Assembly: GCA_003650545.1 (NCBI GenBank)
Contig: QMQO01000002.1
Coordinates: 16,485 to 80,484, forward strand
Origin: Candidatus Woesearchaeota archaeon
GTDB lineage: Archaea; Nanobdellota; Nanobdellia; Woesearchaeales; B72-G16
Length of the DNA: 64,000 nucleotides
Direction of reading: 5' to 3'
Shown: piece by piece, positions 19,689 through 51,704 of the stretch
Numbering within the stretch: position 1 is the stretch's first letter
Layout: each line of letters starts with the position of its first letter
The notes under the pieces: model-generated
What the model was told of the DNA's origin: nothing
Databases searched by the model: none
The model's input: only the letters and a program-made list of their open reading frames with translations
Program-made: the position numbers and the translations under genes

Positions 19689-19956
19689 ATAATATGGTTA
19701 AAACTACCCCTTTATAAATGTTTCGTCATTAGAAAGTAGTTATGACGGATTTTCAAAAAAGCGTCATAATGTCGCTGAAGAGTAAATAAGCCGAAAAGCC
19801 CGAATTTCAGGGTTTCAGGCTCTAAAACGCTAATTCTGAAAAAATGAGATGAAACAAGGCAATTTGACAACTTTCAGGAAAATCCACGAATTTTGGCCTT
19901 GATTTCTGGTGGAGAAGGGGAAGCCGAATCGATTGAGTTTGAGGAGGTGAACCCCA

Positions 19957-20229
19957 ATGAAAGACCTGCAAACGGTTGAGAAATTCCAGCAAGCCCAGGC
20001 AGAAAAATGGGCAAAGAAAGAGAAAGACATACACCTGCAAGTCTGCTTCAAGAAAGCAGTTGATGTTGAGATACACCTCATCCAAGGCGCACAAGCCCTA
20101 GATGAGTCAGAAATCACAGCAAGAATTCTGAAGCGAGCAGAGTATTATTTCCTGGGCTATGAGAAGCTGAAAAGCAAACTCATTGACGGAATTTCTGAGG
20201 AGGCGGATCAGGATGAGCCAAGCAGATGA
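19957..20229 (+). CDS. hypothetical protein (first gene of viral block)
   Basis: ORF with gaggaggtga SD. Confidence 0.4.
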   Translation: MKDLQTVEKFQQAQAEKWAKKEKDIHLQVCFKKAVDVEIHLIQGAQALDESEITARILKRAEYYFLGYEKLKSKLIDGISEEADQDEPSR

Positions 20230-20398
20230 GATCCGCCAGGAACTTGAGAGAAGAAACAAGGAAACACGCCAGAAAATCAAGAAGCAACAAGATGAAAAGG
20301 AATTCAGAGAATACCTTGATGATCTTGGCATAGAAAGGATTGATGCTCCTAAAAAGGAGAAAAAATTGACCCACAGCGGTCGGAGGTCCCGAAAATGA
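20213..20398 (+). CDS. hypothetical basic coiled-coil protein
   Basis: Start chosen at MSQADEIRQ, with a gaggagg SD 10 nt upstream. Confidence 0.35.
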   Translation: MSQADEIRQELERRNKETRQKIKKQQDEKEFREYLDDLGIERIDAPKKEKKLTHSGRRSRK

Positions 20399-20874
20399 AA
20401 ATGGAAGTATCTGACAAGGTAGCAGTGCCTCAAAAGAGGCCACACATAAAGAAAGGCTTCTATCACGCCAGACTGGTGGAAGTCAAGCCAAAAAAGACAG
20501 AAAGCAAGTACGGCAAGAAGATCGTGCTGCTCTTCGAGATTCTGAACGATGCCTTCAAGCAGAATGGAAAGTATCTGCAACTGGCAACAGAGGCATATTA
20601 CGAATACAAGCAAGATGATGGCTCGTACAGGACAGCAGTGACTCCAAACTCAAGGATAACTCAGATTTTCCAAGCACTGGGCTGGAAGTTCACAACGCAG
20701 GGCCTTGATACGAATGACTTCATTGGAGCTGAAGCAGAAGTTCTGGTTGATGACTATGAGTATGAATACACAGATCCAAACACGAACAAGACTGAGATAC
20801 TCAAGGCAAGCACTATCAACGATGTGAACAAATGGGAAGATCAGCCAGAGGTAGTTGAAGAGGTTGTCGAGTGA
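20395..20874 (+). CDS. hypothetical protein with acidic C-terminus
   Basis: ATGA overlap with the upstream gene. A ggaggt SD is present. Confidence 0.45.
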   Translation: MKMEVSDKVAVPQKRPHIKKGFYHARLVEVKPKKTESKYGKKIVLLFEILNDAFKQNGKYLQLATEAYYEYKQDDGSYRTAVTPNSRITQIFQALGWKFTTQGLDTNDFIGAEAEVLVDDYEYEYTDPNTNKTEILKASTINDVNKWEDQPEVVEEVVE

Positions 20875-21076
20875 AATGACAAGTGCAGTTGTTGTTACTA
20901 TGCAGTACGATATCCCAGAAAGTGGGGGAAAGACACACATTAAACACGATTTTTTTGTGAGGGGTCTTCCTCACTTTTTCAAATATCGTACTAAGCAGTA
21001 GTAATTATTGATTGAGTTTGAAGGAAAACTGCACTCACATAGCGATAGCTCTCCAAAAAGGAGGTGAACAAACAAA

Positions 21077-23131
21077 ATGGATAGCAAATCATTCCTAACA
21101 ATCCTGAAATACATAGAAGACTCTAAACTACCAAGAGAAGTCATAAGCAAGTTAAGAAGCAAGTGCGTAGACATATCAGGAGAACTTCTGCCATCAACAA
21201 CAGACAGAAACATAAAACGTAATATCAAACTTATCAATGAATTAGAAGAACTGTTCAAATCAGTTGCAGAAAAGCACAACACAGATTTCCCTGACATATT
21301 CTGCTTCTTCAAAGGATACAAAGACTCAGTGATCATACACGAAAGCATAGAGGAAGATAGCAGAGTTCCAGCTGCAATGATTGAATCACTGCAGATAAGA
21401 TGTAAGACAAACAGCGTCATCAAGATATCCGAGAAGTTCAATTATCAACAAATAAAGGTCATTACAAGAAGAATATTTGATGCTCATCCTAACTCACCTC
21501 TTGTCTTTCCGATAACAAAATACCATCACATAGAAGGAAAAGTCATCGGAGAAATAGAACAAAGAAAGATCAAGATACCTGTTGCGTGGAAAGTAGAAAT
21601 AAGCACCAAAGAAGACAAAACATACGTGCCTTACTTATTTGGAGAGAAGATACCTAAAAGAACAAAGATTGTCGATGAAGTAAGCGGAGAATTCTATCTT
21701 TACAGGTTCTTATCAAAAGAAAGAAAGGAGTATGCTCTGATCAGTACGGACAGGCTGAAGCTTGACGATTATTCCATTGACGGCATTAGCATAGAAGTTG
21801 AAGATTTCAAGATCATAGGAGATGCTTATAGGCTCATAAACAAGTTCACTGTTTTCTTTGTTCACACAGCAAAAAGCCACATCTGTCAATTGCAAAATCA
21901 TAAACAGTTGTTTGAACATGCAGATAAACTCAAACTTACAGGAAATAGGCTCTACCAATACTTAAGCAGTTACAGAAAGAACGGTTCAATACAAGTTTTG
22001 GAGCATCCTAAATGGTTCTTGAAATTAACTTCCGCTTTTCTCTTCCACAAAAAGAAAGGGGACACTGCTGAATACCCTATGCACATTCTTTGGATCTCTG
22101 AAAGAGGTGCTGGTAAAACCACTTTTATGGAATCTCTTCACCAAAAAAGCGGTGAGACTCAAGAAATAATCGCTGGGAGTGCCTCAACAATAAAATATCT
22201 CATCCCGAGTTTCAAAGAAACTAACAGGCCAGACATGGGTGCTCTTGCAAAAGCATCAAGACTTTGCATAATAGACGAGTTCTTCAGGATTCTTCGAACA
22301 AGCCACAAAGAAAGAGAAGATGAAAGCGGTCGGATGAATGACTTGCTTGAACACAAAGACAGGCAAGCAGGAAGCGGCCAAGGGAAAGTAAGAACCAGCA
22401 TGACTGCAAGGCTTTTTGCAGGAACAAATCCTATCGCAGGAACTAACAATATTGTGAATCTTGTTGAAAAATTCGATGACTCCTTCCTTAGCAGGTTCTT
22501 GATATATTATCAAACAGACGATCACGTAAAACTTGTCCATCAAAAGAAAAAAGAAGCTAAGGTTTACACAACTGAGTGGATAGAGGTTAATGATTTTCTG
22601 AGCATCCAAGATTATCTCCAAAGTTTTGATGCGAAATACAATCGGGAAAGGCTTGTCAAAATCTTTGACAAATTTTTGATTTTCTTCAATGAAGAGGTCA
22701 AGGGAATTTATGAGGCAAGATATCTTCATCATCTTGAATGCCTTATTGATGGCATCATAAAAACAAGATGCTTGATAACGAGAGATCCTTCATTCAAGGC
22801 AAAAGAAGAGGATTATCAAGAAGCGGAATACATTTGGGCAATAATAATCAAGGGATGGTTCAGGCAAAACCTTGATGACATTCTTCGTGATCTAAGCATC
22901 CCGATAGAGTCAAGAGCAAGATTCTTGCCGGAAAACGCTGTTTATCTTTTGGAAAAACTTGCTTCTCTTGGCTACAAAGCCAAGCTTGGCGATTTGAGGG
23001 ATAAATGCAGGGGTGAACTTCACGCTCCAAGCATCGCTTTCTATCTTTCCTTGTTGAAGGAAGGAGCGTTTGTCATAGAACGGGATGGATATCTCTATCA
23101 TCATGAATGGGAGGCGATAGAAAGAAAATGA
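21077..23131 (+). CDS. replicative P-loop NTPase, SF3-helicase-like
   Basis: Walker A WISERGAGKTTFMESL, Walker B LCIIDEFFRI, and a downstream FAGTNP sensor-like Asn. Strong aaaggaggtga SD. Preceded by a T-rich hairpin. Confidence 0.55.
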   Translation: MDSKSFLTILKYIEDSKLPREVISKLRSKCVDISGELLPSTTDRNIKRNIKLINELEELFKSVAEKHNTDFPDIFCFFKGYKDSVIIHESIEEDSRVPAAMIESLQIRCKTNSVIKISEKFNYQQIKVITRRIFDAHPNSPLVFPITKYHHIEGKVIGEIEQRKIKIPVAWKVEISTKEDKTYVPYLFGEKIPKRTKIVDEVSGEFYLYRFLSKERKEYALISTDRLKLDDYSIDGISIEVEDFKIIGDAYRLINKFTVFFVHTAKSHICQLQNHKQLFEHADKLKLTGNRLYQYLSSYRKNGSIQVLEHPKWFLKLTSAFLFHKKKGDTAEYPMHILWISERGAGKTTFMESLHQKSGETQEIIAGSASTIKYLIPSFKETNRPDMGALAKASRLCIIDEFFRILRTSHKEREDESGRMNDLLEHKDRQAGSGQGKVRTSMTARLFAGTNPIAGTNNIVNLVEKFDDSFLSRFLIYYQTDDHVKLVHQKKKEAKVYTTEWIEVNDFLSIQDYLQSFDAKYNRERLVKIFDKFLIFFNEEVKGIYEARYLHHLECLIDGIIKTRCLITRDPSFKAKEEDYQEAEYIWAIIIKGWFRQNLDDILRDLSIPIESRARFLPENAVYLLEKLASLGYKAKLGDLRDKCRGELHAPSIAFYLSLLKEGAFVIERDGYLYHHEWEAIERK

Positions 23132-24246
23132 GGCTTTGCTGCACTCAACAGGAAGAGGACTTTTGGCTTGGCGAGCCACTCTATGAAGAAGACAAATCAG
23201 TAGGCTTTCATAGAATGTGGTTCCTGGAAGTTCTTGCCAGGAAGACTGATTTCAAGATAAGCCTTCAAAGCAAAGAAGGATATTACACTAAAAGAATACA
23301 CTGGTCTGATTTCCACTATGAGAAAAAACTCAGAGCATACATAATACACAGAGAATTGTTATCAAATGAAATAGTGCTTGATTTTGATGCTCCAACTTAC
23401 GAAAAGAACGTGAGCAACTTCAAGGACATTTATCCTTTTCTTAAAAGAAAGGGGTTTGTTCCTTACATCTACTTTTCAGGAAACAAAGGATTGCATGTCC
23501 ACTTCTATCTAACCTTTAAGCCCTTAGTCAAAGAACTTGAAATGAAAATTCAGGAAGACATAGTGAACCATTTCAGAAAAGCAGCAACATTTGAGAAGAT
23601 GTTCACAAGATTCATCGCAAAGAAGCTTGAATGGTTATACACTCATTTTTCAATTGATGGGAATCTCAATCATACAAACCATCTCATAAGGTCAGAAGGA
23701 AGTCTTAACAAATTAGGCTTCAAGACTTTTTTAGGCCATACTCCTGAAGACATACCTATCATTGCTCCTATTTACAACATAGAAAACAAGTCTTATCCGA
23801 AGTTTCCTTTTCATGATTACACAAACTCTCTGGATGACATAAAATATTCAGCCTTAACTGACCTTGTCAAACTATGCAAGGAATTTGTTAAGGTAAAAAA
23901 GATTGGTAAGAAAGAGCCAAAATACTTATCTCTTAAGGATTTCTTCCAGAAACCGAGAGTTAATTCCGAGAAGCCGTGCATAAAGTTTCTGGAGAGCCAA
24001 GAGTTTGGAAATATAGGTGAGGGAAGAAAAAGGGCTTTGTTCGTTCTTGCTTCTCATTACAATGATGATCCTCAACAAGTTGCCAAACTCAAAGAATGGA
24101 ATGAGGTAGTTCTCAATAATCATCTTTCAAGTTTTGAGATAGAAAGTTCTGCAAAGAGCACGACAGGAAAAGTAGGTTGCAGGTACATTAAGGAACTTCT
24201 CGGTTCAATAGGTTATGGTCACATATGCAAGGGGTGTTCAAAATGA
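23128..24246 (+). CDS. primase-polymerase (archaeo-eukaryotic primase superfamily) with C-terminal Cys cluster
   Basis: AEP motif I VLDFDAP (DxD) and motif II YFSGNKGLHVHFY (sG.G.H). C-terminus GKVGCRYIKELLGSIGYGHICKGCSK. ATGA-coupled to the helicase. Confidence 0.6.
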   Translation: MRLCCTQQEEDFWLGEPLYEEDKSVGFHRMWFLEVLARKTDFKISLQSKEGYYTKRIHWSDFHYEKKLRAYIIHRELLSNEIVLDFDAPTYEKNVSNFKDIYPFLKRKGFVPYIYFSGNKGLHVHFYLTFKPLVKELEMKIQEDIVNHFRKAATFEKMFTRFIAKKLEWLYTHFSIDGNLNHTNHLIRSEGSLNKLGFKTFLGHTPEDIPIIAPIYNIENKSYPKFPFHDYTNSLDDIKYSALTDLVKLCKEFVKVKKIGKKEPKYLSLKDFFQKPRVNSEKPCIKFLESQEFGNIGEGRKRALFVLASHYNDDPQQVAKLKEWNEVVLNNHLSSFEIESSAKSTTGKVGCRYIKELLGSIGYGHICKGCSK

Positions 24247-24482
24247 AAAAAGAGCCAAAAAATGCGGAAGGGTCGCAAAGGACCTTGGTCAACTTGTATG
24301 ACAAGAGAAACTCTTCAAAGCAACTCAAGACAGTAATTTTCACAAAGCACGTTCCTAAATTCGTTGACCTTGACCTTAAGACTATTGGACCTTTCAAGCC
24401 TGGAGACATTCTCAGAACTCATATTGACATTGCTAATCTGCTTATTTTGAAAGGCAGAGCAAAGGAGTTCGATATAGATTGA
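24243..24482 (+). CDS. hypothetical protein
   Basis: ATGA-coupled to the PrimPol gene. Confidence 0.35.
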   Translation: MKKEPKNAEGSQRTLVNLYDKRNSSKQLKTVIFTKHVPKFVDLDLKTIGPFKPGDILRTHIDIANLLILKGRAKEFDID

Positions 24483-24841: not shown

Positions 24842-25789
24842 ATGTGGAAAGGGTATGAAGCACTGCCAAGTTATTTTGGCGGAAAAAGAAAATTAGCCAG
24901 GAGAATACTCAGCTATGCAGAAGGAAAAGTTTTCATCGATGCGTTTTTAGGAGGTGGCAGCGTTTCCTTATTGGCAAAAGCAAAAGGCTTCAAAGTAATA
25001 TGCAATGACATTGCTGAGAGGTCACGAATTGTTGGAAAGGCCATTATAGAAAACAAGAACAAGAAATTAACTGATTATGACATTTACTCATTGTTTAAGG
25101 AAACTGATAATAATTTCATACGAGATAATTTTCCGAACCTGGCTCTTGAAAAAGACGTGAAGTTTCTTGACAACGCTTTTGCTAATGCCAAGACAGACCT
25201 TCAGAAACTACTGCTCATCAAGTTTCTCTTCAAATATAAACCATTTAGCATGTTGTCAAACAAAGTTCCTAAGGACTTGTCAAACTGCAATTTAAAGGTC
25301 ATAAAGCCGCACTTGAAATATATGTTTAAGCCGATAAGAACCTTGAAAAGAATAAAGGAACAAATTAATTATGGAATATTTGATAATGGCCAAGACAATG
25401 AGTTTCATCAAAAGGATGTTTTTGAATTCTTGAGAAACGTAAAGGGAGATACTATTTATTTTGATCCTCCTTACGCTGGCAGTCAGAGTTATGAGGAGTT
25501 CTACAATATACTTGATAGCATTCTGATGCAGAAGAAGATACCTGTTAAGAAAAGCAAGTTTAACTCTGCTGAAGCAGAAAAGTTTCTTCACAGGTTGCTT
25601 GACGAATCTATGCACATTAAGAAAGTAATATTCAGCTTTGGCGGCCCTAAGATTGACGGGCAGCAATTGTTGAAAATAGTGCAGGAGCATCGCCCTGCTG
25701 AACTGTATGAGATTAAGCATAAATGGTCTATCACGGCCAGCAAGGAGCAGATGCAAACTGCAACAGAAATATTGGTGGTGACAAAATGA
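24842..25789 (+). CDS. Dam-family (alpha-class, D12) DNA N6-adenine methyltransferase, orphan
   Basis: N-terminal YFGGKRKLARRI...DAFLGGGSVSL (Dam motifs X and I) followed by IYFDPPYAG (motif IV). No cognate endonuclease adjacent. Confidence 0.8.
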   Translation: MWKGYEALPSYFGGKRKLARRILSYAEGKVFIDAFLGGGSVSLLAKAKGFKVICNDIAERSRIVGKAIIENKNKKLTDYDIYSLFKETDNNFIRDNFPNLALEKDVKFLDNAFANAKTDLQKLLLIKFLFKYKPFSMLSNKVPKDLSNCNLKVIKPHLKYMFKPIRTLKRIKEQINYGIFDNGQDNEFHQKDVFEFLRNVKGDTIYFDPPYAGSQSYEEFYNILDSILMQKKIPVKKSKFNSAEAEKFLHRLLDESMHIKKVIFSFGGPKIDGQQLLKIVQEHRPAELYEIKHKWSITASKEQMQTATEILVVTK

Positions 25790-26451
25790 AAACTGAAAAA
25801 ATACCAATGGAGTTAATCGAAGAAAACAACTACAATCCAAATGAGATGGATGAGAACAAGTTCAAGAAACTTGTCTTGAACATAAAACGCAAGGGTTTCA
25901 GGAAGCCTATTGAAGTGAGGAAAGTAGGGGAGAAGTACGTTATAATTGACGGAGCTCATAGATTCAGGGCTTGTAAGGAATTAGGTTACACCGAAATTGA
26001 TTGCATAGTTGATGATGTTGATGAAACTGAGGCCATGATTGACACCCTCAACGCAAACATTCATGGCACCCATAATCCTTACAAGGAGGCGCAAATATTC
26101 AAGCAGATTCACGAGAGGTACACTCTCAGGGATATTGAGAAGTTGACTATTTTTAATCAGTCTGAGATTAAGGACAGGCTTGAGTTGCTTAGTCTTTCTC
26201 CTGCAATACAGAAAGAGATTGAGAAAAGGGAGAAGGCTGAAGCGAGGGAGGCGCCAGTAGTTCTTACTTTTATGATTAAGGAAGCCGAGAAAGAGATTGT
26301 AATGAAAGCTCTTGATCTTTGCGAGAACTCTTCAGACAAGAACAAGGCCCTGGTAGAGTTATGCCAGAAATCGCTTAATTTTATGGAGGTGAAAAACGTT
26401 GGAGAAGAAAGCGAGCAGTCAAACGAGCAGTCAACATCCAAAACTGCGTAA
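25786..26451 (+). CDS. ParB/Srx-like nuclease domain protein
   Basis: KPIEVRKVGEKYVIIDGAHRFRACKELGYTEIDCIV. ATGA-coupled to the methyltransferase. Confidence 0.6.
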   Translation: MKTEKIPMELIEENNYNPNEMDENKFKKLVLNIKRKGFRKPIEVRKVGEKYVIIDGAHRFRACKELGYTEIDCIVDDVDETEAMIDTLNANIHGTHNPYKEAQIFKQIHERYTLRDIEKLTIFNQSEIKDRLELLSLSPAIQKEIEKREKAEAREAPVVLTFMIKEAEKEIVMKALDLCENSSDKNKALVELCQKSLNFMEVKNVGEESEQSNEQSTSKTA

Positions 26452-26508
26452 CTTTAAGGGAAACATTCACACATTAACGGAAGAGGACAGGAGGAAGGCA
26501 GGGAAAAC

Positions 26509-26992
26509 TATGACGCCAAAAAGAAGGCTTGCTAACACGCTTAATCCTATGAAGACTGGCAGGTACTCCAAAAGAGTTCCTCACTGCCATACTTGTGTCT
26601 TCAAAAACAGATGCAGTGCCTATGATCCTAAAGACCCAAAAGCAGCATGCAAAGTAATTGATATTCCTAACTATTTTCATCTTATGAGTGCCTTGACTTT
26701 TCGCACAGAAGAAGATTTTGATGATTTTGTGAACAAACTCACTCAAAGATTGTATCTGAAGAATATGACCAGTGATGACTGGGACAAAATGAAAGACTTC
26801 TTGTTGATATTTCTAAGGGTCAAAGACTCAAAATTCAGGAATCCCAGAGAACAAACAGTCAACATCCAGATCAATAATTTTCATGAGGAGTTCAACTTGT
26901 TCAAAGATGTCACTTTGAAAGTGCTGAGAAAACATCCTGAAGTTATGAAGGAATGGAGGAATGCTCTTGATGCTGCCAAACAATCCGATTGA
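26509..26992 (+). CDS. hypothetical protein, positional candidate for terminase small subunit
   Basis: Position immediately upstream of TerL. Basic N-terminus. No motif support. Confidence 0.3.
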
Positions 26993-28436
26993 AACAGCGC
27001 TCTTTGAAAGTTTTAAAGAGCCGACTTATGAGAACTTCATAGGATTTGTGAAGAGGTATCTCGCTCCTTATATGGAACAAGAATTTGTGGAAGAAGACTA
27101 TTACAAGGAGTGGTTTGAACTTGAGCAAAAATACCAATACAATGCGATTGAAGCGCCAAGGGGACATAGCAAGAGTGAAAACTTCACAGTTTGGTTTACT
27201 ATTTATTATGCTGTTTATGATCTCAAACACGAACAAATAATCTCATCTGTAAGCGGAGATCAGACAAATGAATTATTTGACAGGATTAAATATTTCTTCT
27301 ATGTAAGTCCTTATCTTAATAGGAATTTTAAGCCAGAAGGAGCTGACAAGAATGTCAGTTTAAGTTCCTGGAACTCAAAAAAGATCGTTCTCAAGAATGA
27401 TGCTGTAATTCATGCGAGAAGTATTGCTGGCAAGTGGAGAGGTCTTCACGTTGACAGGATTGTTTGTGATGACATCATTACAGAAGACAGCACGTTAAGC
27501 GATAAGCAAACCATTAACAAGTTTTATTCAGCCGTGTTTAATTGCTCAACCGCAAAGAAAGGAAGCATAACTGTAATTGGGACTCCCTTGCGTTATTCAG
27601 ACATACTTTTTGATCTTAAGGCCAATAAGCAATTTAATTTCAAGGTTTACCCTGCTATTCTTAACTTTGAGGAGAGAAAGGTATTATCTCCTAAAAGAAA
27701 ATCTTTTGATGAATTGATGAGGATCAAAGAAACCATAGGTTCTTTGAGGTTTCAGTGCGAGTTCATGCTTAATCCTATCGATGATCACAGTTCTATCTTC
27801 AAGAGGGCTTGGCTGAGAAGGGCAAGAAATGAGAGCATAGAACTGATTAGGAACAGAAGGGAACTTCAACAGTACGGTTTTGAAGTCACGTCTATTATGT
27901 GCGGTGCTGATTTCGCTTTCTCTGAAAGGAAAAGCGCAAACTATTCAGTGTTTTTGACATTAGCAAGACTGACTGATGGCAGACTCTTGCTTTGTGATTT
28001 TTTCAGGAAAAAAGGAATGACTGGCCAGCAACAGATTGACAAGTTAAGAGAACTTCATTCAGCATATGATTATGATGTTATGGCATTGGAAGAAAACAGC
28101 ATTATGGCAATAAGCAGGGATATCAAGAACATTGGCTTGCCCATAAAGACCCTTAGGACAGGAACAAGGGACACAGACGTTTCAATCTCAAAAACAAATG
28201 CGATCTTAAGGATGACCACGTGGTTTGAGAATAATCAAGTTGTCATACCTTATGCGAGTGAAGAAGCTAAAGAAAAGTACGAACTTCTTGAGCAAGAGTT
28301 CCTGAGTTTTGCTCTTGAGGATGGGAAGATTACAGAAATAGGAGTTCATCCAGACATTCCAATAGCTTTTGTTTATGCAGCTGAAGCTGTGAAAAGAACA
28401 ACCCCCACAGGTTTTGTCACAAGCATAGTCAGATAA
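26961..28436 (+). CDS. terL: terminase large subunit
   Basis: Walker A-like IEAPRGHSKSENFTVW, Walker B-like LHVDRIVCDDII, and a C-terminal nuclease-type region. Length 491 aa. Confidence 0.75.
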   Translation: MLLMLPNNPIETALFESFKEPTYENFIGFVKRYLAPYMEQEFVEEDYYKEWFELEQKYQYNAIEAPRGHSKSENFTVWFTIYYAVYDLKHEQIISSVSGDQTNELFDRIKYFFYVSPYLNRNFKPEGADKNVSLSSWNSKKIVLKNDAVIHARSIAGKWRGLHVDRIVCDDIITEDSTLSDKQTINKFYSAVFNCSTAKKGSITVIGTPLRYSDILFDLKANKQFNFKVYPAILNFEERKVLSPKRKSFDELMRIKETIGSLRFQCEFMLNPIDDHSSIFKRAWLRRARNESIELIRNRRELQQYGFEVTSIMCGADFAFSERKSANYSVFLTLARLTDGRLLLCDFFRKKGMTGQQQIDKLRELHSAYDYDVMALEENSIMAISRDIKNIGLPIKTLRTGTRDTDVSISKTNAILRMTTWFENNQVVIPYASEEAKEKYELLEQEFLSFALEDGKITEIGVHPDIPIAFVYAAEAVKRTTPTGFVTSIVR

Positions 28437-37017: not shown

Positions 37018-37021
37018 GAAA

Positions 37022-44179: not shown

Positions 44180-46737
44180 AAATGGTAGAACCTCACAAAC
44201 CCGTTTTCAAAGTCTATGTTGACAATGGGAACGGATGGCAAGACGTAAGCGACAATGTTGTTAAATGGGACTCTTCAGTAGCTGTAACTACGAAGACCAA
44301 TACTGCATCACTAACTTTTGATTATGGAGTTCTTCAGCAAGTTCAGCAGCTTGATTCCTCTGCAAAAATCAAGATTGAGGCGGGTTATGACAGCAACAAC
44401 CTCAAGCTTATCTTTGATGGCTTAATAAGAAACATAAGGAAGAGCAACACGAAAGAGGATTTTGATGTTGACGCTGATGATTATTCTGTTTTTATGCTTG
44501 ATAGGTTCATAACCGATGCTTTTGAGAATATCAAGGCTGTGGATATCATTAAGGACATTCTTTCTGAGAAAATTCCAGAGTATGTTTGGGATGCTGATTC
44601 CTTTGATGATCACGAATTCATTGTTGAGAAGATAGCTTTTGAAGACAAGCCAATAATCGAGATCATAGAGTACCTCGCAGAACTCATTGGCTTTGATTTT
44701 TGGGTGGAAAGCGATGGCAATGGAACTATCAAGTTCTTCTGCAAAGTTAGGAAGAGCATAGAATCTGATTTTGTTCTTGAAAGAGGAAAAAATCTCAAAA
44801 GCCTTATATTCATAGAGGACAAGAGCCAAATGTTTAATAGGGTTATTGTTGAAGGTGACAAAAGAGAGTTTTCCACGAAAGAAGACTTCACAGGGGATGG
44901 GACAACAAAAGATTTTGTCCTAAGGTTCAGACCTCATAATGTTCGGGTGATTGTTAATGGAACGATTCTTCAGGGAGGAGTCGAAGGCATATCGCAGAAC
45001 CCTGATTTCTTTGTTGATTTTTTCAACAAGAAAGTTACTTTTGTGAATGCTCCTCAAGCAGGATCGAGCATTGAAATAGAATACGCTTATGACATTCCCA
45101 TTAAGGTAGAAGTTACTGACTTTGCTTCAATCTCTAAATATGGTGAAAGGGTTCAACTGATAAAAAACAAGAACATTAAGGAAAAAGCAGAAGCAAAGAG
45201 ATTTGCCAGGGAGTACATCAAAAGGTACGGTAAGCCCTTGTTCATAGCAGAAGCTGAAGCGCCAGCAAGTATAGATTTCAGTGTGGGAGATGTCATTACA
45301 GTAAAGGACTTGGCAAAAGGAATAAATAATTCAATGCAAGTGTTGGAATGCACTTATTCTTATTCAAAGACGGAAGGATTCAATTCATCCCTGAAACTTG
45401 CTCAAACAGAACAAACAGGATCAAACGTTCTCAAGGATATAATATTGAGACTTAAGCAACTTGAAGAACTTCTTAAGGGAGATGTTGAGGTAGTAACAAA
45501 ACTCACAACTTTTGAGGAAACAATAACTATCAGAATAAAGAGAATCACGGCAAAGAAAAGGCAGCTTCTTGAAGGGTTCAGTTGGAGCAGGGACGGAGTT
45601 TGGAGCGGGAATGATTGGGGAGTCGACAATTTCGTGAGTTATGAAACATTCTTTGAGTATGGAGATAAGGATGTCCTGCAAAAAGATTTCAATGTCATCC
45701 GGGAAGAAGAACTAAGGGTTGAGGTTCTGTTCAGTCCAGAACTTGATAAGATTCTTGTATGGTCTCTTGGAGATTGGACTAAGGATTCTTGGTCAGGAGA
45801 AACTGAATTCATTGTTCCAACACCGACTTTCCTTAAGGAGATAATTGACGAACTCAAGAGCGATCTTGAAAGGACGGCTTTCAATCTTTCAGTGCACCCA
45901 GATTACAGTTCAGCAACCATTTGGAGCTTGAATGGAGGCAGTCCGCCTTATTGGTCAAAAATAGGATTCACAAGAACATTGTCTCCAGCAGGGCCAACCC
46001 AGCAGACGCATGATAAGGCAGTGACAGATCTGGCTTCATCTGATGAAAGACTTGGATTCGAGTTAAGAATTGAACCTGCACTTGATGATAAGACTCCTGT
46101 CTGGAGCATGAATTATGTATGGAGTGAGACTGGAACTGAAGCAGCAATAAGTGTTCCTGAATTCAAGAAATATGCTTCTGAATTGCTCAATGCCAGTGAA
46201 AGATTAACGCTTGCTCAGGAATTCCTGTCATTCCTTGATGATGAACTTGCTTGGAGCAGATCAAGATGGAGCAAGAGTCCAGCAATTGAGTTCGTGGAAA
46301 CAGAAAATGTTATTTTGAAAGAAATAGATGATAATATCATAAGCGGGGAGAAAATCTCCTTCAAGCTTAACGAACCAGAAGACGGGTTCTTCTGGAGCAT
46401 GAGGGCCTGGAGCACGGATGACTGGGGGAACATCCCTCAAAATCTTGCTCAGCAGGACATACAGAATAGAATCGTAAGCGATGATTTGGTTTCTGAAGAC
46501 AGCATAAAGATGGAGCTGTCGCTTGATTCATCCTTCCACGGATGGAGTCTCAAGATTTGGAGCAAAGACGGATGGATTAAGTTTGAGCAACCAGCACCTC
46601 AGCAAAGCACTCACTTGAAGACTGAGGAAGAATTGCTGGCAATAACAGAGAGGAAAGGGTTTGAGAGCATATTGAGTCTCAACCCGCAAACAGAGTTAAT
46701 CAATACAAAATCAAAATGGAGTGAGGCAGCATGGTAG
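44176..46737 (+). CDS. tail/baseplate structural protein (853 aa), Trp/Ser-rich C-terminal repeats
   Basis: Position. Repeated W-S-x-D/W-G motifs. Confidence 0.45.
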   Translation: MKMVEPHKPVFKVYVDNGNGWQDVSDNVVKWDSSVAVTTKTNTASLTFDYGVLQQVQQLDSSAKIKIEAGYDSNNLKLIFDGLIRNIRKSNTKEDFDVDADDYSVFMLDRFITDAFENIKAVDIIKDILSEKIPEYVWDADSFDDHEFIVEKIAFEDKPIIEIIEYLAELIGFDFWVESDGNGTIKFFCKVRKSIESDFVLERGKNLKSLIFIEDKSQMFNRVIVEGDKREFSTKEDFTGDGTTKDFVLRFRPHNVRVIVNGTILQGGVEGISQNPDFFVDFFNKKVTFVNAPQAGSSIEIEYAYDIPIKVEVTDFASISKYGERVQLIKNKNIKEKAEAKRFAREYIKRYGKPLFIAEAEAPASIDFSVGDVITVKDLAKGINNSMQVLECTYSYSKTEGFNSSLKLAQTEQTGSNVLKDIILRLKQLEELLKGDVEVVTKLTTFEETITIRIKRITAKKRQLLEGFSWSRDGVWSGNDWGVDNFVSYETFFEYGDKDVLQKDFNVIREEELRVEVLFSPELDKILVWSLGDWTKDSWSGETEFIVPTPTFLKEIIDELKSDLERTAFNLSVHPDYSSATIWSLNGGSPPYWSKIGFTRTLSPAGPTQQTHDKAVTDLASSDERLGFELRIEPALDDKTPVWSMNYVWSETGTEAAISVPEFKKYASELLNASERLTLAQEFLSFLDDELAWSRSRWSKSPAIEFVETENVILKEIDDNIISGEKISFKLNEPEDGFFWSMRAWSTDDWGNIPQNLAQQDIQNRIVSDDLVSEDSIKMELSLDSSFHGWSLKIWSKDGWIKFEQPAPQQSTHLKTEEELLAITERKGFESILSLNPQTELINTKSKWSEAAW

Positions 46738-47192
46738 AAGGAAAAGACACTCTTAAGGCAAAAGGAACTGTGAACATCAAGGTCATCCAAAAAGATGGCA
46801 AGGTCATTGAGAGCATGACCATAAACAAAGTTGTTGATTTGGGCATTGAGGCATTGCTTCAACACATTAATGGAAACTATTCCAGTCTTATCAGCCATTT
46901 CAAGATCGGAACTGGAACAACTGCTCCTGCAGGAACTGACACTGATGTTGAGAACGGTGTTGAATTTGACACAGGAATAACCACAAAGGCATTTGACAAC
47001 GTCAGTTTTCCCTCAGCGAAAGAAGTCAAGTATCAATTAACAGTGGACTTCACTGAAGGCAATGGCAACACGCTGAGCGAAGTGGGATTGTTCTTCGCTG
47101 ACAACAGAATGTTTTCCCGTTTTGTGCATCAGGGAATTAACAAGACGAGTTTCATCAAGATAGTGTTCCAATACACGATCAAGATAGAATAA
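46731..47192 (+). CDS. hypothetical tail protein
   Basis: Position only. Confidence 0.35.
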   Translation: MVEGKDTLKAKGTVNIKVIQKDGKVIESMTINKVVDLGIEALLQHINGNYSSLISHFKIGTGTTAPAGTDTDVENGVEFDTGITTKAFDNVSFPSAKEVKYQLTVDFTEGNGNTLSEVGLFFADNRMFSRFVHQGINKTSFIKIVFQYTIKIE

Positions 47193-47204
47193 GGAGGCTA
47201 AGAA

Positions 47205-47552
47205 ATGGTATTCACCAATGCTGGCAAGCAACAAATCCTGGAAGCGCTAAAGAATCAGATCACTCACGTGGCATTAGGGACTGGACAAAATACCGACACG
47301 GAATTCGCTACAAGTCTGGGGAACGAAACTTTCAGGAAGCCAGTGACAGACAAAACAATAGAGACTGAAACCAATAGCATTGACATAGAATGCTTCTTGG
47401 GTTCAAGCGAGGGGAACGGAAATGATTTCTCTGAACTTGGGCTGCTTGACTCTCCTAGCGGAGGAAACTTGTTCGTGATCACTAATTTCCCTCCAGAAAG
47501 CAAAACCCCGCTTCTTGAGTGGTTAATAGACATCGTGATTGAGATAAAATAA
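47205..47552 (+). CDS. hypothetical tail protein
   Basis: aaggagg SD. Confidence 0.35.
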   Translation: MVFTNAGKQQILEALKNQITHVALGTGQNTDTEFATSLGNETFRKPVTDKTIETETNSIDIECFLGSSEGNGNDFSELGLLDSPSGGNLFVITNFPPESKTPLLEWLIDIVIEIK

Positions 47553-47581
47553 CATAAAGAAAGAAATATGAGGTGATTATT

Positions 47582-50251
47582 ATGGCATACGAAATCAAAA
47601 ATAATGAAATCGCTTGGGCTGCTGCTGTTGAGAACATCAACCGAGGATATAGAGTTTTCGGCGTGAGCGAAGATAATGCATTCAAAGTTCTTCCATTTGA
47701 AGGCATGACAATTCATCTTCCTAATGGCGGCCAATGTTGGATTAATGACGAGCGGAGCGTATGGACTGATCATATTCAGGATGATTTCGAAGGTGGAGTG
47801 AGTGATTGGAAAACTGATTCTGATACTACAATAAGTGAAGAGACTAGCATAGTGTATGCTGGCACTAAGGCCATGAAAATAGTCTGGAATCATGATGGTG
47901 TTACTCAATTCAATAATCGTGTGTACAAAGAATATAACTCGGTTGACATTAAATATAGGAATAAACTGATCTTACAGTTTTATCCAGAATCAGCACTTCA
48001 AGATGACCTATATATTAAGTATAAGAATAACAATAGCGAATTCATCCTTACTCAAATACCTGCAGCATCATTAACTCCAGGGCAATGGAATAGGATTCTT
48101 GTTGATTTGCCTGCTAATGATGTCCAAAAAAATAAATTTCAAGCATTAATCTTTGAGTTTGACGGGCTTCAATGGAGTTCTGGAACGCATACATTCTATA
48201 TTGATCTTGTGGAGTTTGACACTCAAATTGACATTCCTGATGCAGATCCTAATGATGAAAGAAAAGACTTGATCGTTGTAGGAGCAGATGGCAAGGTTGA
48301 ATTAATTCAGGGCACACCTCAAAGCCAAAACCCTGTAGAACCACCTGATCTGCCCGTTGATAAACACGCTCTTGCAATCGTGACTGTGCCAGCAGGATTA
48401 ACAACTATCACTTCTGCCCAAATATTTGATACAAGAGTTCCTAATACCTTTGCAGTTAATGCGGACAAAACTAAAAATGAATTAACAGTGATTAAAAGTC
48501 AAATTGTTGATCTTGCACTTGCTGACATAGAACAAAATGCTCTCCTTGGCCTTCCAAGCGACATTCCTTTCAGCAACATGGTTGTTGAGAAATTTTGGGA
48601 TAGAGATGGTTTGAATAACACTGTTGAGACTGTGAATGAAGGAGAAAACATGCATGGTTTCTATGAGGCTATTGACGTGGCAAGAGGGCAAATAAATGTT
48701 AGTGGTTTGCCTGATATATCTGGCCTTGGTGGAACTGGCTGGACTGAGGCTACTTGGAGAACAAGAGCATATTATTGGAGAGGAAAGATCTGGACCTGGA
48801 TGAAGAGAAATTCATCTTACGATGAAATGGGGTGGGGTATAGCAAGCATAAATCCCATAACTGGGGCAAAAATATTTGCTAACATATGGACTGATGATTG
48901 GCAAGCGGATCCCAATGATAATACGCCCAATGGCAGCAGGCAATTTAGTTTCTTTAAAGACAATAGCACAACATGGTGCGCGCATCCTAAAGACTGGTGT
49001 CACGACGAAAACTATTTGTACGTGCCTGTTTATGTAAGCGCCACCCCCATAGGATGGTATAGCAGCCAAGTAGTCATATTAGTTATAGATGAGGATGGGC
49101 ATGTTGTTAGATCAATCCAAGCAGAGGAAACAAACGGGCCGTTTCATGATTGGTATGGGATTCAATCATTTTATTATGATGTGAACCTTAAGGCATTTCT
49201 CTTATGGCATAATGGCAGAAGATATACTGACTGGGGCCATTATTATGTGCCTGTAATGTATGATAAGAATTGGAATGCTATCTTTTCAGGTAATCTGCAA
49301 ACTACGGAATATTACCCATATCTATTTGCGTATCTGCCAGATAATCAGTACCTCTATCAACTTTCATGGAGGCAAGCAAGCGGCAATTATAGAATATACG
49401 CTTACAGGTGGAGAATAGTTAAAGACATTAATGGAAATTTGAATATAACGAATGCTGGCAGCTACACAACAACGAACCATTCCAACACTAATGGTCGGCC
49501 AATTTGGTTCAATCAAACAACTATCTGTAACCAGAAAGACAGGATTTGGATGTGTTACAGAGATAACGAGTACCATATAAGATGTCTGTATATACAAGCA
49601 GGGTATAATGATGATTGGTGGCAAAATTACAATATAGGAGACAATCCTCTTGATAGAGGGATAATAGTAGAGTCAAACGTAGAATCCTCACAAACAAACG
49701 GAATTCCTTTTGTTTCATGGGCTGTGGCATATGGAAGCGATACAGCATTTTATGGATTTGGAGATAAAACGTATAAACTCGAAGGAGGGAAAGCAGTTCC
49801 AGGGGAGGTTGTTGCCGCAGGTTCTTTTGCTGGAAGACGTGGCGTGAGCATCGTCGGAAGAAATTCAGTTACTTTTTGGGACACGACAAATGATGCTTTT
49901 TATATTGCAGACTATTCTAACGCATTGACCGGGAGAGAACAGATTGGCTTTGATATAGTGACAAAGACATTTAATTTTGAGAACACCAAAGGAATCTATG
50001 TAACTGCTAAAGTTGCTGGAAGAGGAACAACAGCCTTATTATCAAAAATCAAGGTTGACATATTAGATTCTCTTGGCAATCCTATAACGGGATTAACTGA
50101 TCTTGCAGTTGACACTTATCATCCCATTCCTGTTGATGCTCAACCGCTTGATCAGTTCAAACTGAGAATCTATTATGTGCCAGATGGTGTTGATAACATA
50201 CTTGCTCAATTCCATGAATATGGCGTTTTTGTGGATAATGAGGTGGCTTAA
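47582..50251 (+). CDS. tail fibre / receptor-binding protein (about 890 aa, aromatic-rich)
   Basis: gaggtga SD. Very high Trp/Tyr/Asn content. Largest distal tail gene. Confidence 0.5.
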   Translation: MAYEIKNNEIAWAAAVENINRGYRVFGVSEDNAFKVLPFEGMTIHLPNGGQCWINDERSVWTDHIQDDFEGGVSDWKTDSDTTISEETSIVYAGTKAMKIVWNHDGVTQFNNRVYKEYNSVDIKYRNKLILQFYPESALQDDLYIKYKNNNSEFILTQIPAASLTPGQWNRILVDLPANDVQKNKFQALIFEFDGLQWSSGTHTFYIDLVEFDTQIDIPDADPNDERKDLIVVGADGKVELIQGTPQSQNPVEPPDLPVDKHALAIVTVPAGLTTITSAQIFDTRVPNTFAVNADKTKNELTVIKSQIVDLALADIEQNALLGLPSDIPFSNMVVEKFWDRDGLNNTVETVNEGENMHGFYEAIDVARGQINVSGLPDISGLGGTGWTEATWRTRAYYWRGKIWTWMKRNSSYDEMGWGIASINPITGAKIFANIWTDDWQADPNDNTPNGSRQFSFFKDNSTTWCAHPKDWCHDENYLYVPVYVSATPIGWYSSQVVILVIDEDGHVVRSIQAEETNGPFHDWYGIQSFYYDVNLKAFLLWHNGRRYTDWGHYYVPVMYDKNWNAIFSGNLQTTEYYPYLFAYLPDNQYLYQLSWRQASGNYRIYAYRWRIVKDINGNLNITNAGSYTTTNHSNTNGRPIWFNQTTICNQKDRIWMCYRDNEYHIRCLYIQAGYNDDWWQNYNIGDNPLDRGIIVESNVESSQTNGIPFVSWAVAYGSDTAFYGFGDKTYKLEGGKAVPGEVVAAGSFAGRRGVSIVGRNSVTFWDTTNDAFYIADYSNALTGREQIGFDIVTKTFNFENTKGIYVTAKVAGRGTTALLSKIKVDILDSLGNPITGLTDLAVDTYHPIPVDAQPLDQFKLRIYYVPDGVDNILAQFHEYGVFVDNEVA

Positions 50252-50408: not shown

Positions 50409-50420
50409 GAGATGTAAAAA

Positions 50421-50936
50421 ATGAAAGAAATAGACGATTTTGATAAAGAATTTGCTATTGAAGGCAGATGGACGGAACGTCAGAAGGAATTAATGTCATC
50501 CTTAATGGATGAAATTATTGTTGTTTTAAAAAAAAGATTTCCTGATGTTGTAGAACAAATCAAATTAGATTATTTTTTCCCAAAGGAAAAGATAGGGATT
50601 AAGTTTAAGACAAAATTTTTAGCAACTAACGAAAAATATCTTGGAGAACTTCAATCTCTTCATCTTTTGAATGCTTTTAAGGAAGAACCTGATGCTACTG
50701 AAAATTTATTGAAAACATTGTTTAACAACCATGCAGTTATGCTCTATGAAGAAACAATTCATTATGTTCTTTCTAAATTGCTTCGTTATCTTGTCAAGAG
50801 AGCCAATGATGAGGATGTGGAGCAGGATGGTTCCTGGATTGCAGAAGGTATGAAGATTATTCCTGTCTTTGAAGTTCCTGAAAACGTGATTATTATGAAT
50901 GCAAACACTTTTGATAAATTTAAAGATAAAAGGTGA
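50421..50936 (+). CDS. hypothetical protein
   Basis: ggagatg SD. More AT-rich than the structural genes. Confidence 0.4.
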   Translation: MKEIDDFDKEFAIEGRWTERQKELMSSLMDEIIVVLKKRFPDVVEQIKLDYFFPKEKIGIKFKTKFLATNEKYLGELQSLHLLNAFKEEPDATENLLKTLFNNHAVMLYEETIHYVLSKLLRYLVKRANDEDVEQDGSWIAEGMKIIPVFEVPENVIIMNANTFDKFKDKR

Positions 50937-51265
50937 TGCTAATGAACCAACAAGAACAACTAAATAAAATCAAGGAAATACTTGAAGAGGTTAAGAAAGA
51001 GATAAACACGGAAACCCCTGTGTCAGTTTCTCTTGAGTCTCGCAACAATGGAGGAAGGATTTCTTTTGCGTTGCGAGGAAGGATTTGTTTTGAAGAAGCA
51101 TCAGAGTTCGGCACCTCATTGAGTTCTGCTTTTGAGGAAGAAGATTACGATGCTGTTAAGCAAGAAGTGAGCAGTGCTTATAGGGAATTGATGCAGAACC
51201 TCTTAAGGAAAGTATCTGAGACAGTTGAAACAGGTGATGCAGAAGATGGCGACTCCGAAGCTTAA
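50933..51265 (+). CDS. hypothetical acidic protein
   Basis: ORF coupled to the upstream gene. Confidence 0.4.
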   Translation: MMLMNQQEQLNKIKEILEEVKKEINTETPVSVSLESRNNGGRISFALRGRICFEEASEFGTSLSSAFEEEDYDAVKQEVSSAYRELMQNLLRKVSETVETGDAEDGDSEA

Positions 51266-51572
51266 TGGCAAGCATGGAGTGATGATCACAAAGATGTATG
51301 GCCAGATCGGAGTGCTTATCACTGATGTTGCTAATATCAAGGAGTCTCAGAAGGAGCTGAAGGAAGACATTGCTCAAATTCATGAAAGCGTAACCGATCT
51401 TAAGATTAGCGCTAAAGGTTCTGCGGAGAAATTAAGAGCTGTCAGCGCTGCTCTTGATGAGCACAAGAGAGCTCATGAGCGATTGTTTAGCAGGGTCCTT
51501 GGAATCATTGGGATCATCACAACCATTGTTTCGTTGGCAGTTTCAGTCATATTTAATCTTTTCAAACGCTAA
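51225..51572 (+). CDS. hypothetical protein with C-terminal transmembrane helix
   Basis: C-terminus LGIIGIITTIVSLAVSVIFNLF. Confidence 0.4.
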   Translation: MKQVMQKMATPKLNGKHGVMITKMYGQIGVLITDVANIKESQKELKEDIAQIHESVTDLKISAKGSAEKLRAVSAALDEHKRAHERLFSRVLGIIGIITTIVSLAVSVIFNLFKR

Positions 51573-51704
51573 TTTTTTGTCAAGTCCAAAAAGGTGCTGA
51601 AGTGCTGAAATAGACGATATTTTGCGTTTCAGAGTTTTTGTATTGCTTGTACTTGACACGCAGACGAAAACTATTTATAAAAGCTGGAGATATTTCTGAT
51701 AAGG

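Follow-up and report, generated by a model that had tools for sequence, protein, structure and literature searches.

Head-tail viruses and proviruses with their own MCM-based replication module are known among archaea from haloarchaeal and methanogen examples. A provirus with MCM, primase and GINS genes and a DISARM neighbor was already described in 2024 from the Woesearchaeales family B72-G16 (QMQO01000002_pro; QMQO01000002@36197-91651, 55,455 bp on a contig of 91,911 bp; Xu et al. 2024, Microbiol Spectr, PMC11705971). The same study delimited a second provirus, QZIT01000006_pro (QZIT01000006@210221-261764; contig of 421,023 bp), and described class 2 DISARM and Dnd for both proviruses jointly, with the carrier unspecified (PMC11705971). 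We have analyzed a 64,000-nt stretch of the first contig (QMQO01000002.1, positions 16,485-80,484), which is called the window; positions past its right edge are given in the same numbering and termed window-equivalent. Comparison loci and contigs retrieved during the analysis carry L-numbers (e.g., L024). The block at 19,71x-51,57x of the window is an intact 31.9-kb temperate head-tail virus (Caudoviricetes) of a Woesearchaeales (DPANN) host, and it belongs to the lineage published as 'Woesearchaeales tailed proviruses'. The novelty of our analysis is modest and lies in the architecture of an att-type arm at the left end of the virus, in the evidence that the published 55-kb unit is probably a composite, and in an Orc1-CARF docking site beside the virus.

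The viral block holds 39 genes, all in one direction, in 31,857 bp that are 95.6% coding. In 2-kb windows, the GC content is 0.37-0.455 within 20-52 kb versus 0.28-0.36 in the flanks. Per gene, it is 0.414 for the 39 block genes versus 0.327 for 20 flank genes, and at third codon positions (GC3) it is 0.422 versus 0.261 (Mann-Whitney p about 1e-8 for the contrast in GC and GC3). Of the block genes, 26/39 have a Shine-Dalgarno motif upstream, compared with 3/20 of the flank genes (Fisher p=2.5e-4). TATA-type leaderless starts are characteristic of the flanks and, with few exceptions, confined to them. The compositional and translational contrast between block and flanks is therefore real. An initial annotation, made by a model from the sequence, had described a unidirectional, GC-rich head-tail archaeal provirus of about 32 kb with just this Shine-Dalgarno contrast; the measurements bear the description out, and composition across the window is not uniform.

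The junctions with host DNA were checked in other assemblies. The same DNA is present at 99.995-100% identity in the differently named assemblies ERZ27227320 (k141_289523, 91.7 kb) and ERZ1742239 (NODE_110, 110.6 kb), and Logan contigs of SRR6823441 match the window DNA as well. Identical proteins carry the NCBI locus tags DRJ17_00700, DRJ17_00705 and DRJ17_00875 ('Candidatus Woesearchaeota archaeon'), and the identical MCM is also found in an NCBI record. The source is metagenomic and Logan contigs break at 19711-19740 and at 52,665, as might be seen if a free virus had been fused to host DNA during assembly. However, both long assemblies have identical junctions, the published NCBI record has the same gene order, and relatives are integrated in contigs of 85-665 kb, so that a chimera is very unlikely, to the point of being negligible. 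At the left junction, Logan contig L002 ends at 19740 and L007 begins at 19711, an overlap of 30 nt. This break hints at a branch in the assembly graph, for example between occupied and empty forms, although the hint is weakened by other breaks within the virus.

The left border lies at 19711-19720, between TTTATAAA and TGTTTCG, within the promoter of a host phosphoesterase gene (start codon 19688). Host phosphoesterase homologs (L016, L017) match the window from the start codon to the TATA box at 19711-19719 and diverge beyond it, and the viral relative L015 matches the window from the same TATA box rightwards. Seven independent left flanks are all joined to the viral end at T[TA]TATAAA[TC]G, with the host gene on the opposite strand in 7/7 junctions. 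The junction and the left flanks are as follows.

19711-19719, no strand: left junction, TATA-box core TTTATAAAT, common to the host phosphoesterase promoter and the element end
Left flank in the window: phosphoesterase gene
Left flank in L015: gene of 217 amino acids (aa)
Left flank in L020: 231-aa gene beside Suf-type iron-sulfur assembly-like genes (a likeness judged by N-terminal sequences)
Left flank in L100: Big_9 surface protein beside an aminoacyl-tRNA synthetase and PurA
Left flank in L102: small gene beside an exosome-proteasome operon
Left flank in L103: pentapeptide protein beside ribosomal protein S3Ae

The right border lies at 51572-51576, where 51572 is the stop codon of a holin-like gene. 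We place the right end of the virus at this stop codon because the inverted repeat, Orc1 and CARF genes that follow it also exist without the virus, and because the locus L104 has three minus-strand genes wedged between the stop of the last viral gene and the inverted repeat. Both ends are thus close to where the initial annotation had put them, against the phosphoesterase gene on the left, now pinned to 19711-19720 by seven flanks, and just before Orc1/Cdc6 on the right.

The hallmarks of Caudoviricetes are present in the block, namely an HK97-fold capsid, a portal, a large terminase (TerL) and a tail module with a tape measure. Family assignments were made with Pfam and PHROG, and published HHpred or PHROG calls (PMC11705971) are given where they add to them. 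Two proteins were modeled with AlphaFold2 (AF2; pLDDT, the model confidence score). The viral genes are listed below.

19957-20398, plus strand: two small early genes (90 and 61 aa) with no family match in Pfam or PHROG; kept in all relatives, in the remnant L020 and in its near-identical copies L019/L021
20395-20874, plus strand: SSB-like OB-fold protein, 159 aa (AF2 pLDDT 88; Foldseek matches to PrgE and SsbA)
21077-23131, plus strand: divergent MCM, 684 aa (AF2 pLDDT 84; Foldseek matches to MCM; published HHpred MCM4, 99.98)
23107-24246, plus strand: archaeo-eukaryotic primase (AEP)-like protein (weak Pfam LigD_Prim-Pol and weak PHROG primase; published HHpred AE_Prim_S_like, 99.87)
24225-24482, plus strand: GINS, Gins51 C-terminal domain (PF22090, 1.3e-8, above cutoff)
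24842-25789, plus strand: Dam-type N6-adenine methyltransferase (PF02086, 1.2e-17)
25723-26451, plus strand: ParB N-terminal domain protein (PF02195, 2e-16)
26399-26992, plus strand: putative small terminase, by position
26961-28436, plus strand: TerL (Terminase_6N, 0.8 bit below the Pfam cutoff; published HHpred terminase large subunit, 100)
28809-30893, plus strand: portal (PF04860, 1.8e-18)
30944-32164, plus strand: probable head maturation protease (weak phrog_80, 1.5e-5, in the C-terminal third; published phrog_3244, 99.44)
32659-33033, plus strand: cement/scaffold-like protein (PF09956, 2e-5)
33051-33857, plus strand: HK97-fold major capsid protein (PF05065, 5.5e-22, above cutoff)
33887-34624, plus strand: second capsid-like gene, called capsid by published HHpred alone
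36535-39499, plus strand: head-tail connector, tail terminator, tail tube and chaperone (weakly HK97-gp10-like; collinear in all relatives; published PHROG calls)
39687-43799, plus strand: tape measure protein, 1370 aa (PF10145, 1.8e-42)
43796-50251, plus strand: GpU-like baseplate hub, Prophage_tail/YQBQ tail protein, and fiber and baseplate proteins (PF06995, PF24032, PF06605)
50421-51572, plus strand: three small late genes (weak PHROG hemolysin/spanin), the last holin-like with a C-terminal transmembrane segment (51246-51572; published holin)

TerL is most similar to Bacteroides phage genes annotated as hypothetical protein (25.6% identity, E=1e-36), with weaker matches to annotated phage large terminases. 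No close phage or archaeal virus genome was found among deposited sequences, TerL being at most 27% and the capsid at most 34% identical to its matches, all of which are bacterial phages. Free, circularly permuted viral genomes were likewise not found in IMG/VR with the portal, a tail protein, the MCM, Orc1, and the SSB-like and MCM alignments as queries, and only provirus fragments and distant relatives were recovered.

The initial annotation had noted that the block lacks an integrase of its own, and this is borne out. A Pfam scan of open reading frames (ORFs) of at least 61 aa detected neither an integrase nor a transposase or serine recombinase; the scan included the 115-aa ORF at 47205-47552, and no recombinase was detected with PHROGs (ten ORFs), NCBIfam (three ORFs) or tblastn with four recombinases. 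The structure models of two block proteins (159 and 684 aa) showed no recombinase fold. A Mu-like transposable virus was also considered and rejected; no transposase was found with Pfam or PHROG, and the right neighbor is constant (the inverted repeat and Orc1) in every locus with a visible right end, set apart from the virus by three wedged genes in L104.

Most of the gene set that had been read from the sequence stands, namely the Dam methyltransferase, the ParB N-terminal domain, TerL, the portal, the HK97 capsid and the 1370-aa tape measure. The presumed AEP PrimPol matches only weakly in Pfam and PHROG here, and its support comes chiefly from the published HHpred call. The presumed S78 protease is weaker too, being a probable maturation protease by the PHROG match at 1.5e-5 and the published call, with S78 as a putative family. 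The presumed SF3-like helicase was reassigned. This 684-aa protein has a sub-threshold AAA match, no Pfam MCM match and no relative in the PDB by sequence. Its model, built from an alignment of 31 homologs, gives full-length matches to MCM (Foldseek E 4e-15 to 1e-13), with structural partners that include the archaeal MCM structures 8q67 and 6mii and eukaryotic Mcm2-7. All 50 listed structural matches are MCM, and there is no SF3 or D5 family match. The protein is, by its predicted structure, a divergent MCM replicative helicase with an N-terminal domain, an AAA+ core and a C-terminal helical domain. Together with the SSB-like, AEP primase-like and GINS proteins it appears to make up a replication module. 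The virus encodes neither an initiator nor a recombinase. Distant viral relatives, whose MCM is 28-38% identical, keep MCM, primase and SSB together, with no Orc1 within 10 kb. A homolog of the viral MCM, with 33% identity over 66% of its length, was also seen in P0176, a 46-kb contig of a Candidatus Heimdallarchaeaceae (Asgard) metagenome-assembled genome; it may point to kin of the replication module outside DPANN, or to a mis-binned contig.

Relatives of the virus were found in IMG/VR, in Joint Genome Institute (JGI) metagenomes and in long Woesearchaeota contigs.

L015 and L013, which together make L024: viral relative, 85-kb contig
L059: viral relative, 178-kb contig
L100: viral relative, 665-kb contig
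L102: viral relative, 421-kb contig
L103 and L104: viral relatives

The virus is collinear with these relatives at 35-92% amino acid identity, and all genes are full length. Between L024 and L059, the ratio of nonsynonymous to synonymous substitution rates (dN/dS) is 0.03-0.15 for viral and flanking genes, all of which are under purifying selection, and dS is 0.9-1.25 for viral genes and 0.9-1.5 for the Orc1, CARF and UvrD-like genes. Amino acid identities are 92-96% for Orc1, CARF and UvrD-like proteins versus 39-91% for viral proteins. Separate histories of Orc1 and virus could be argued from these identities, but the argument is weakened by the similar dS of viral and flanking genes. The fiber is mosaic among relatives, with 39-81% identity and a similarity that is out of step with host relatedness. 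In one related virus (L010 6971-14584; IMGVR_UViG_3300037424_003016) a 7.6-kb insert lies between the portal and protease genes and carries a 558-aa reverse transcriptase (RVT_1 and HTH_40) and four minus-strand genes without a family match; it could be a diversity-generating retroelement or a defense reverse transcriptase.

Two deletion derivatives were recovered. In L020 (5843-9867; also L019 and L021), the left three genes, a fiber fragment and the last genes remain, and in L022 (1-970) an N-terminal fragment of MCM alone is left, fused 28 nt upstream of Orc1. The two viral deletions are independent, and each lies beside an intact Orc1-CARF pair. The similar dS, the purifying selection and the constant position relative to Orc1 in lineages with a visible right end, as well as these remnants and the missing recombinase, would suit a grounded provirus. 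Such a provirus would be inherited vertically at this locus and kept by host selection, with or without the ability to excise, and it might replicate in situ from the neighboring Orc1 and inverted repeat. We regard this as rather unlikely, given seven left flanks that are joined at the same nucleotide, a fiber similarity that does not track host relatedness, the retention of complete replication, packaging and lysis genes, and the conservation of the att arm described below.

The sequence to the right of the virus holds an Orc1-CARF module and defense genes.

51577-51659, no strand: inverted repeat TTGTCAAGT-66 nt-ACTTGAC upstream of Orc1; non-viral, with invariant arms and a variable spacer
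51663-51681, plus strand: promoter of the leaderless Orc1 gene with a transcription factor B recognition element (BRE) and TATA box; its reverse complement TATAAATAGTTTTCGTC resembles the viral left end TATAAATGTTTCGTC, at the level of similarity seen in shuffled sequence
51705-52757, plus strand: Orc1/Cdc6-family AAA+ protein (AAA_22, Cdc6_lid), a neighbor of the virus and not its cargo
52754-53551, minus strand: Cas4-like PD-(D/E)XK nuclease between Orc1 and CARF (PF12705, 3e-21; PADLOC Cas4), with host-like GC
53670-54419, plus strand: CARF and winged helix-turn-helix (wHTH) regulator (HFX_2341_N, Csa3-like; PADLOC CARF3, 1e-37)
54422-62287, plus strand: DISARM class 2 core genes DrmE, DrmA and DrmB (PADLOC 2e-48, 1e-215 and 1e-94)

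Ten related loci in which Orc1 is close by share the pattern TTGTCAAGT-N(50-80)-ACTTGACA, among them the virus-free L025, L026 and L027. The inverted repeat has the same position in L013, L019-L021, L023-L027 and L059, with the BRE/TATA 14 nt past the right arm. Extra tandem GACTTGACA boxes occur in L025, L026 and L027, and exact copies of the box lie inside the virus at 36510 (plus strand) and 39548 (minus strand). The inverted repeat may be a putative binding site of Orc1, like an origin recognition box (ORB), or of a regulator. The TTGTCAAGT box was also considered as an att core and rejected, as it has no conserved copy at the viral left junction. Its behavior is that of paired protein-binding sites belonging to the Orc1 module.

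Against the NCBIfam Orc1 models, the Orc1 protein aligns over the full length with scores below cutoff (166.5 vs 181.3; 197.8 vs 354). The Orc1-CARF module lies beside a full virus in the window, L023/L024, L059 and L104, and is found without the virus in L025, L026, L027, L105 and L106, where a small integrase element takes its place. Orc1 homologs fall into two tiers. One is a small subclade at 62-78% identity that is always beside a mobile element, and the other, at 48-54% identity, numbers hundreds of clusters whose contigs are chromosomal and reach 731 kb. The Orc1 beside the virus may be an accessory copy linked to mobile elements rather than the main initiator.

It might be proposed that Orc1/Cdc6 and the inverted repeat, as an origin, are themselves viral and serve as loader and origin for the viral MCM, which would move the right end to about 52.76 kb. 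The GC content stays at 0.39-0.45 through Orc1 and falls at about 52,750, the GC3 of Orc1 is 0.51, the virus has an MCM and no initiator, and the Logan contig break at 52,665 is close to this position. Moreover, Orc1 adjoins every full provirus with a visible right end (the window, L024/L023, L059 and L104) and the remnants L020 and L022, and its subclade keeps to mobile elements throughout. Nevertheless, the proposal seems unlikely. The module occurs without a virus in five loci, Orc1 is intact in the two independent deletion derivatives, and the three foreign genes of L104 separate the virus from the inverted repeat and Orc1. The distant relatives keep MCM, primase and SSB with no Orc1 nearby, and the Orc1 start is of the leaderless, host-style TATA type, unlike those of most viral genes, which have a Shine-Dalgarno motif.

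The CARF-wHTH gene always comes next after Orc1, except for the Cas4-like insertion here, and the Cas4-like gene is absent from this position in all relatives and thus peculiar to this genome. No CRISPR-associated genes were found in general family scans of the window, in which no search for CRISPR arrays was made. Interchangeable defense-like cassettes begin 0-4 nt past the CARF stop codon (L020, L024, L059, L022, L027, L104, L105). They comprise DISARM in the window and, elsewhere, a 715-aa gene (DUF262-like by its N-terminal sequence) with a UvrD-like helicase, a set of SNF2, methyltransferase and ResIII genes, or a 401-443-aa protein. From its sequence context, the CARF-wHTH gene looks like a conserved anchor for cassette exchange. 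A C5 methylase (PF00145) lies near DISARM at L008 8975-9991. To the left of the virus, the window has a low-GC island (0.28-0.31) at 9250-16047 on the minus strand, with a Type III restriction-modification (R-M) system (Mod 14071-16047, Res 10851-13445) and three further genes with little or no annotation, among them a C39-like peptidase. Defense islands flank the virus on both sides by PADLOC, Type III R-M on the left and DISARM on the right, the left one in keeping with the defense island of the initial annotation.

The recombinase to the left of the virus is of the host XerA type.

5734-6561, minus strand: host XerA-type recombinase outside the element (NCBIfam NF040815 equivalog, 222.5 vs a cutoff of 220 bits, marginal; PF13495, N-terminal SAM-like; PF00589)

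The initial annotation had suggested that the whole stretch from 5.7 to 52 kb may be one element mobilized by this recombinase. A variant would be similar to integrative mobile elements exploiting Xer (IMEX), in that the virus would use the host XerA at a dif-like site. The gene is 13 kb to the left, and the viral left end contains, at 19741-19768, a site with the geometry of dif (11-6-11, 9/11 complementary). However, sites with at least 9/11 complementarity occur at 0.31 per kb, and the right junction has none that is dif-like. The recombinase scores above the cutoff of the XerA equivalog model, only chance-level k-mers (11-13-mers) link 5-7.2 kb to either end of the virus, and no relative shares the left flank along with the virus. 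This leftward extension is therefore highly improbable. Xer-exploiting elements are not mentioned in a 2021 review of archaeal tyrosine recombinases (PMC8371274).

The published annotation extends to the right instead. Published gene coordinates convert to those of the window by a constant offset of 19,712 (checked for genes 1, 3, 4, 38, 45 and 54), and the published borders are window-equivalent 19,713 on the left and 75,167 on the right. The genes that matter here are given below in the same numbering (PMC11705971).

19957-20229: published gene 1, hypothetical
21077-23131: published gene 4, MCM
51246-51572: published gene 37, holin
51705-52757: published gene 38, Cdc6
54.4-62.3 kb: published genes 41-43, DrmE, DrmA and DrmB
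62665-63801: published gene 45, AspBHI
67,221-68,066: published gene 54, integrase
74,023-74,991: published gene 63, 'Tyrosine recombinase XerA', 176 nt from the right border

Since the right part of this 55-kb unit exists without the virus, and since the virus decays independently of it, the published provirus is probably composite, with a viral unit proper of 31.9 kb, as judged from comparison of sequences.

A putative att-type arm was found at the viral left end.

19720-19767, plus strand: att-type arm, TGTTTCG followed by boxes in alternating orientation, CGTCAT (19724), ATGACG (19742) and CGTCAT (19762)

The first viral bases, TGTTTCG, read CGAAACA on the other strand, which is BRE-like and forms an outward-facing promoter with the adjacent TATA box. 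The boxes co-vary across lineages (CGTTAC/ATAACG/CGTTAT and CGCTAC/ATAGCG/CGCTAT), and in six proviruses 92% of cells were paired in the inverted repeat, with one compensatory pair, which is modest support. The three-box architecture occurs once in the window and in 0 of 30 shuffles, and once at the left end of each related provirus. The same architecture (TATA, TTTC[CG], box, inverted box, 13-14 nt, box) was found at the outer end of integrase elements in L026, L105 and L106. In L026 the arm lies between host ribosomal protein L1 and a terminal integrase, about 130 nt from the latter; in L106 the distance is about 110 nt. Box variants are shared as well, CGTCAT between the window virus and the L105/L106 element and CGTTAC between the L100 virus and the L026 element. 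We read the three-box architecture as the putative att arm of the integrase family of these small elements.

The small integrase elements are about 3-4 kb long and were located at L008 4451-7376 (window-equivalent about 66.4-69.4 kb), L026 2433-5282, L105 5410-8981 and L106 1603-5174. They contain a HARE-HTH protein, small ORFs, a 281-294-aa tyrosine integrase and a Zn-ribbon protein, and sometimes RadC or LemA. In virus-free genomes the element is directly upstream of the inverted repeat and Orc1, and here it is about 15 kb to the right of Orc1 and inverted. In L008, the 281-aa PF00589 integrase at window-equivalent 67,221-68,066, in a small gene cluster with the HARE-HTH protein, is 71% identical to the integrase of the L026/L027 element, the roughly 2.9-kb elements being syntenic. 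The L026/L027 element lies directly upstream of the inverted repeat and Orc1, and L026 and L106 have a second, terminal integrase (355 and 315 aa, respectively) at the outer end.

Other possible targets and repeats were screened. Among 16-21, 5-7.2 and 50-54.5 kb, direct and inverted repeats were limited to chance-level 11-13-mers, such as AAACGCTAATT at 19825/51564 and TTTATAAATGT at 19711/53639, the latter serving in all relatives as the CARF gene's consensus TATA promoter. A TATA-box target-site duplication with terminal inverted repeats fails in relatives, and an RNA gene or tRNA as target was rejected, with no tRNA in the window and no Rfam match. Comparison with related genomes defined the left junction, and no truly empty site upstream of Orc1 was found among them. 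Phosphoesterase homologs in three contigs from genome collections (two labeled Nanoarchaeota, one Methanosarcinales) are non-syntenic on both sides, and upstream of Orc1 there is a mobile element in every member of this Orc1 subclade.

The account that we prefer, with confidence somewhat above even, is site-specific entry by a tyrosine recombinase whose gene lies outside the virus, the virus being the integrase-distal part of a composite island. The island would consist of the virus, the Orc1/CARF module, the DISARM and R-M cargo, the small integrase element and the terminal integrase. It would have integrated as a whole at a BRE/TATA promoter, whereby the flanking host gene would keep a promoter composed of the TATA core and an element-borne BRE. 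The absence of an integrase from the block need not mean an unusual route, because two tyrosine recombinase genes are annotated in the published table past the right edge of the window. The different integration or maintenance route that the initial annotation had envisaged is thus not needed as stated, the published element running rightwards to 75,167 with both recombinases (PMC11705971). We infer that the virus is either a separate unit inside the 55 kb or a part moving with the whole, and a distal tyrosine recombinase would be involved in either case.

Several points weigh against this island moving as a unit. Its right part occurs without the virus (L105, L106, L025, L026, L027), the virus has decayed independently of the right part (L020, L022), and the defense cargo differs between lineages. 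Seven different host genes lie at the left end, and a flank so variable needs either low target specificity, with promoters in general as targets, or repeated rearrangement. No second copy of the arm was found in the window or 10 kb beyond (74 kb covered). The similar dS of viral and flanking genes could also reflect long vertical co-residence, and not repeated integration. The published direct repeat is not shown, and the far right end at about 74-75.2 kb is known from the published table alone (PMC11705971). The strand column of that table conflicts with the strands here for the Cas4-like gene, DrmE, AspBHI and the integrase, and should not be used for gene orientation at the far right end.

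Alternatively, the 31.9-kb virus may be a mobile unit of its own that lacks an integrase and borrows that of the small element in trans, inserting at a BRE/TATA promoter between a host gene and Orc1. attR would then be the Orc1 promoter (CGAAAAC-TATTTATAAA), and the unit would run from 19,71x to about 51,68x. An arm common to the virus and the integrase elements, with matching box variants, is consistent with this, as are the presence of the same element family in this genome, the occurrence of virus and small element as alternative occupants upstream of the inverted repeat and Orc1, and the mosaic, host-incongruent fiber. The likeness of the reverse-complemented Orc1 promoter to the left end has also been counted in its favor; however, two strong archaeal promoters would give a similarity of this shuffle level. 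In addition, the inverted repeat would become intraviral, yet it is present in virus-free loci and separated from the virus in L104, and there is no integrase within 10 kb of Orc1 in L020, L024 and L059. We consider borrowing of this kind possible, short of probable. A combination of promoter-targeting integration through the shared arm with a borrowed integrase and a borrowed origin, in which the neighboring inverted repeat and Orc1 would serve the MCM, GINS and primase, is a tentative suggestion that we lean against. Its att core would consist of a TATA box between inverted repeats that resemble a BRE (CGAAACA / TGTTTCG), and insertion would thereby rebuild a working promoter for the flanking host gene. 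That the viral MCM has the neighboring Orc1 as its loader and the inverted repeat as its origin is speculative.

Pipelines that delimit proviruses by an integrase and a repeat can take in neighboring islands. A promoter-like, att-type element end that is common to a virus and a small integrase element is of interest in DPANN archaea, whose mobile elements are poorly known. In Woesearchaeales, the Orc1-CARF pair is a landmark at which mobile elements and defense cassettes dock recurrently.

QMQO01000002_pro appears to be the same DNA as that analyzed here. Its genes 1-37 correspond to the viral block, and the MCM, primase, GINS, Dam, ParB, TerL, portal, capsid, tape measure and holin calls agree. 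The difference is that all 55,455 bp were treated as one provirus, including Cdc6, the Cas4-like gene, Csa3, DISARM, AspBHI/Dcm, the small integrase element and the terminal recombinase (PMC11705971). QZIT01000006_pro (L102) belongs to the same virus lineage, with a left-end protein 76% identical, collinear genes and the same arm architecture, and its published left border at 210,221 coincides exactly with the L102 junction (200,898 + 9,324 - 1). It differs in its host family (UBA9642 vs B72-G16) and in its left flank, an exosome-proteasome operon. Class 2 DISARM systems have DrmE, DrmA and DrmB with a nearby C5 methylase, as is the case here, although here the system is cargo that adjoins the virus and lies outside the viral unit, and relatives hold other cassettes after CARF. 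Archaeal tyrosine-integrase elements of the pNOB8/SNJ2 type have the integrase gene beside one att site and integrate site-specifically. PF00589 integrases are found here too, whereas there is no tRNA target, the core resembles a BRE/TATA promoter, many host genes occur at the junction, and the integrase lies at least 15 kb from the viral genes. Compared with the MCM-encoding archaeal tailed viruses, the MCM of this virus is very divergent and has GINS, AEP primase and SSB-like proteins as its companions.

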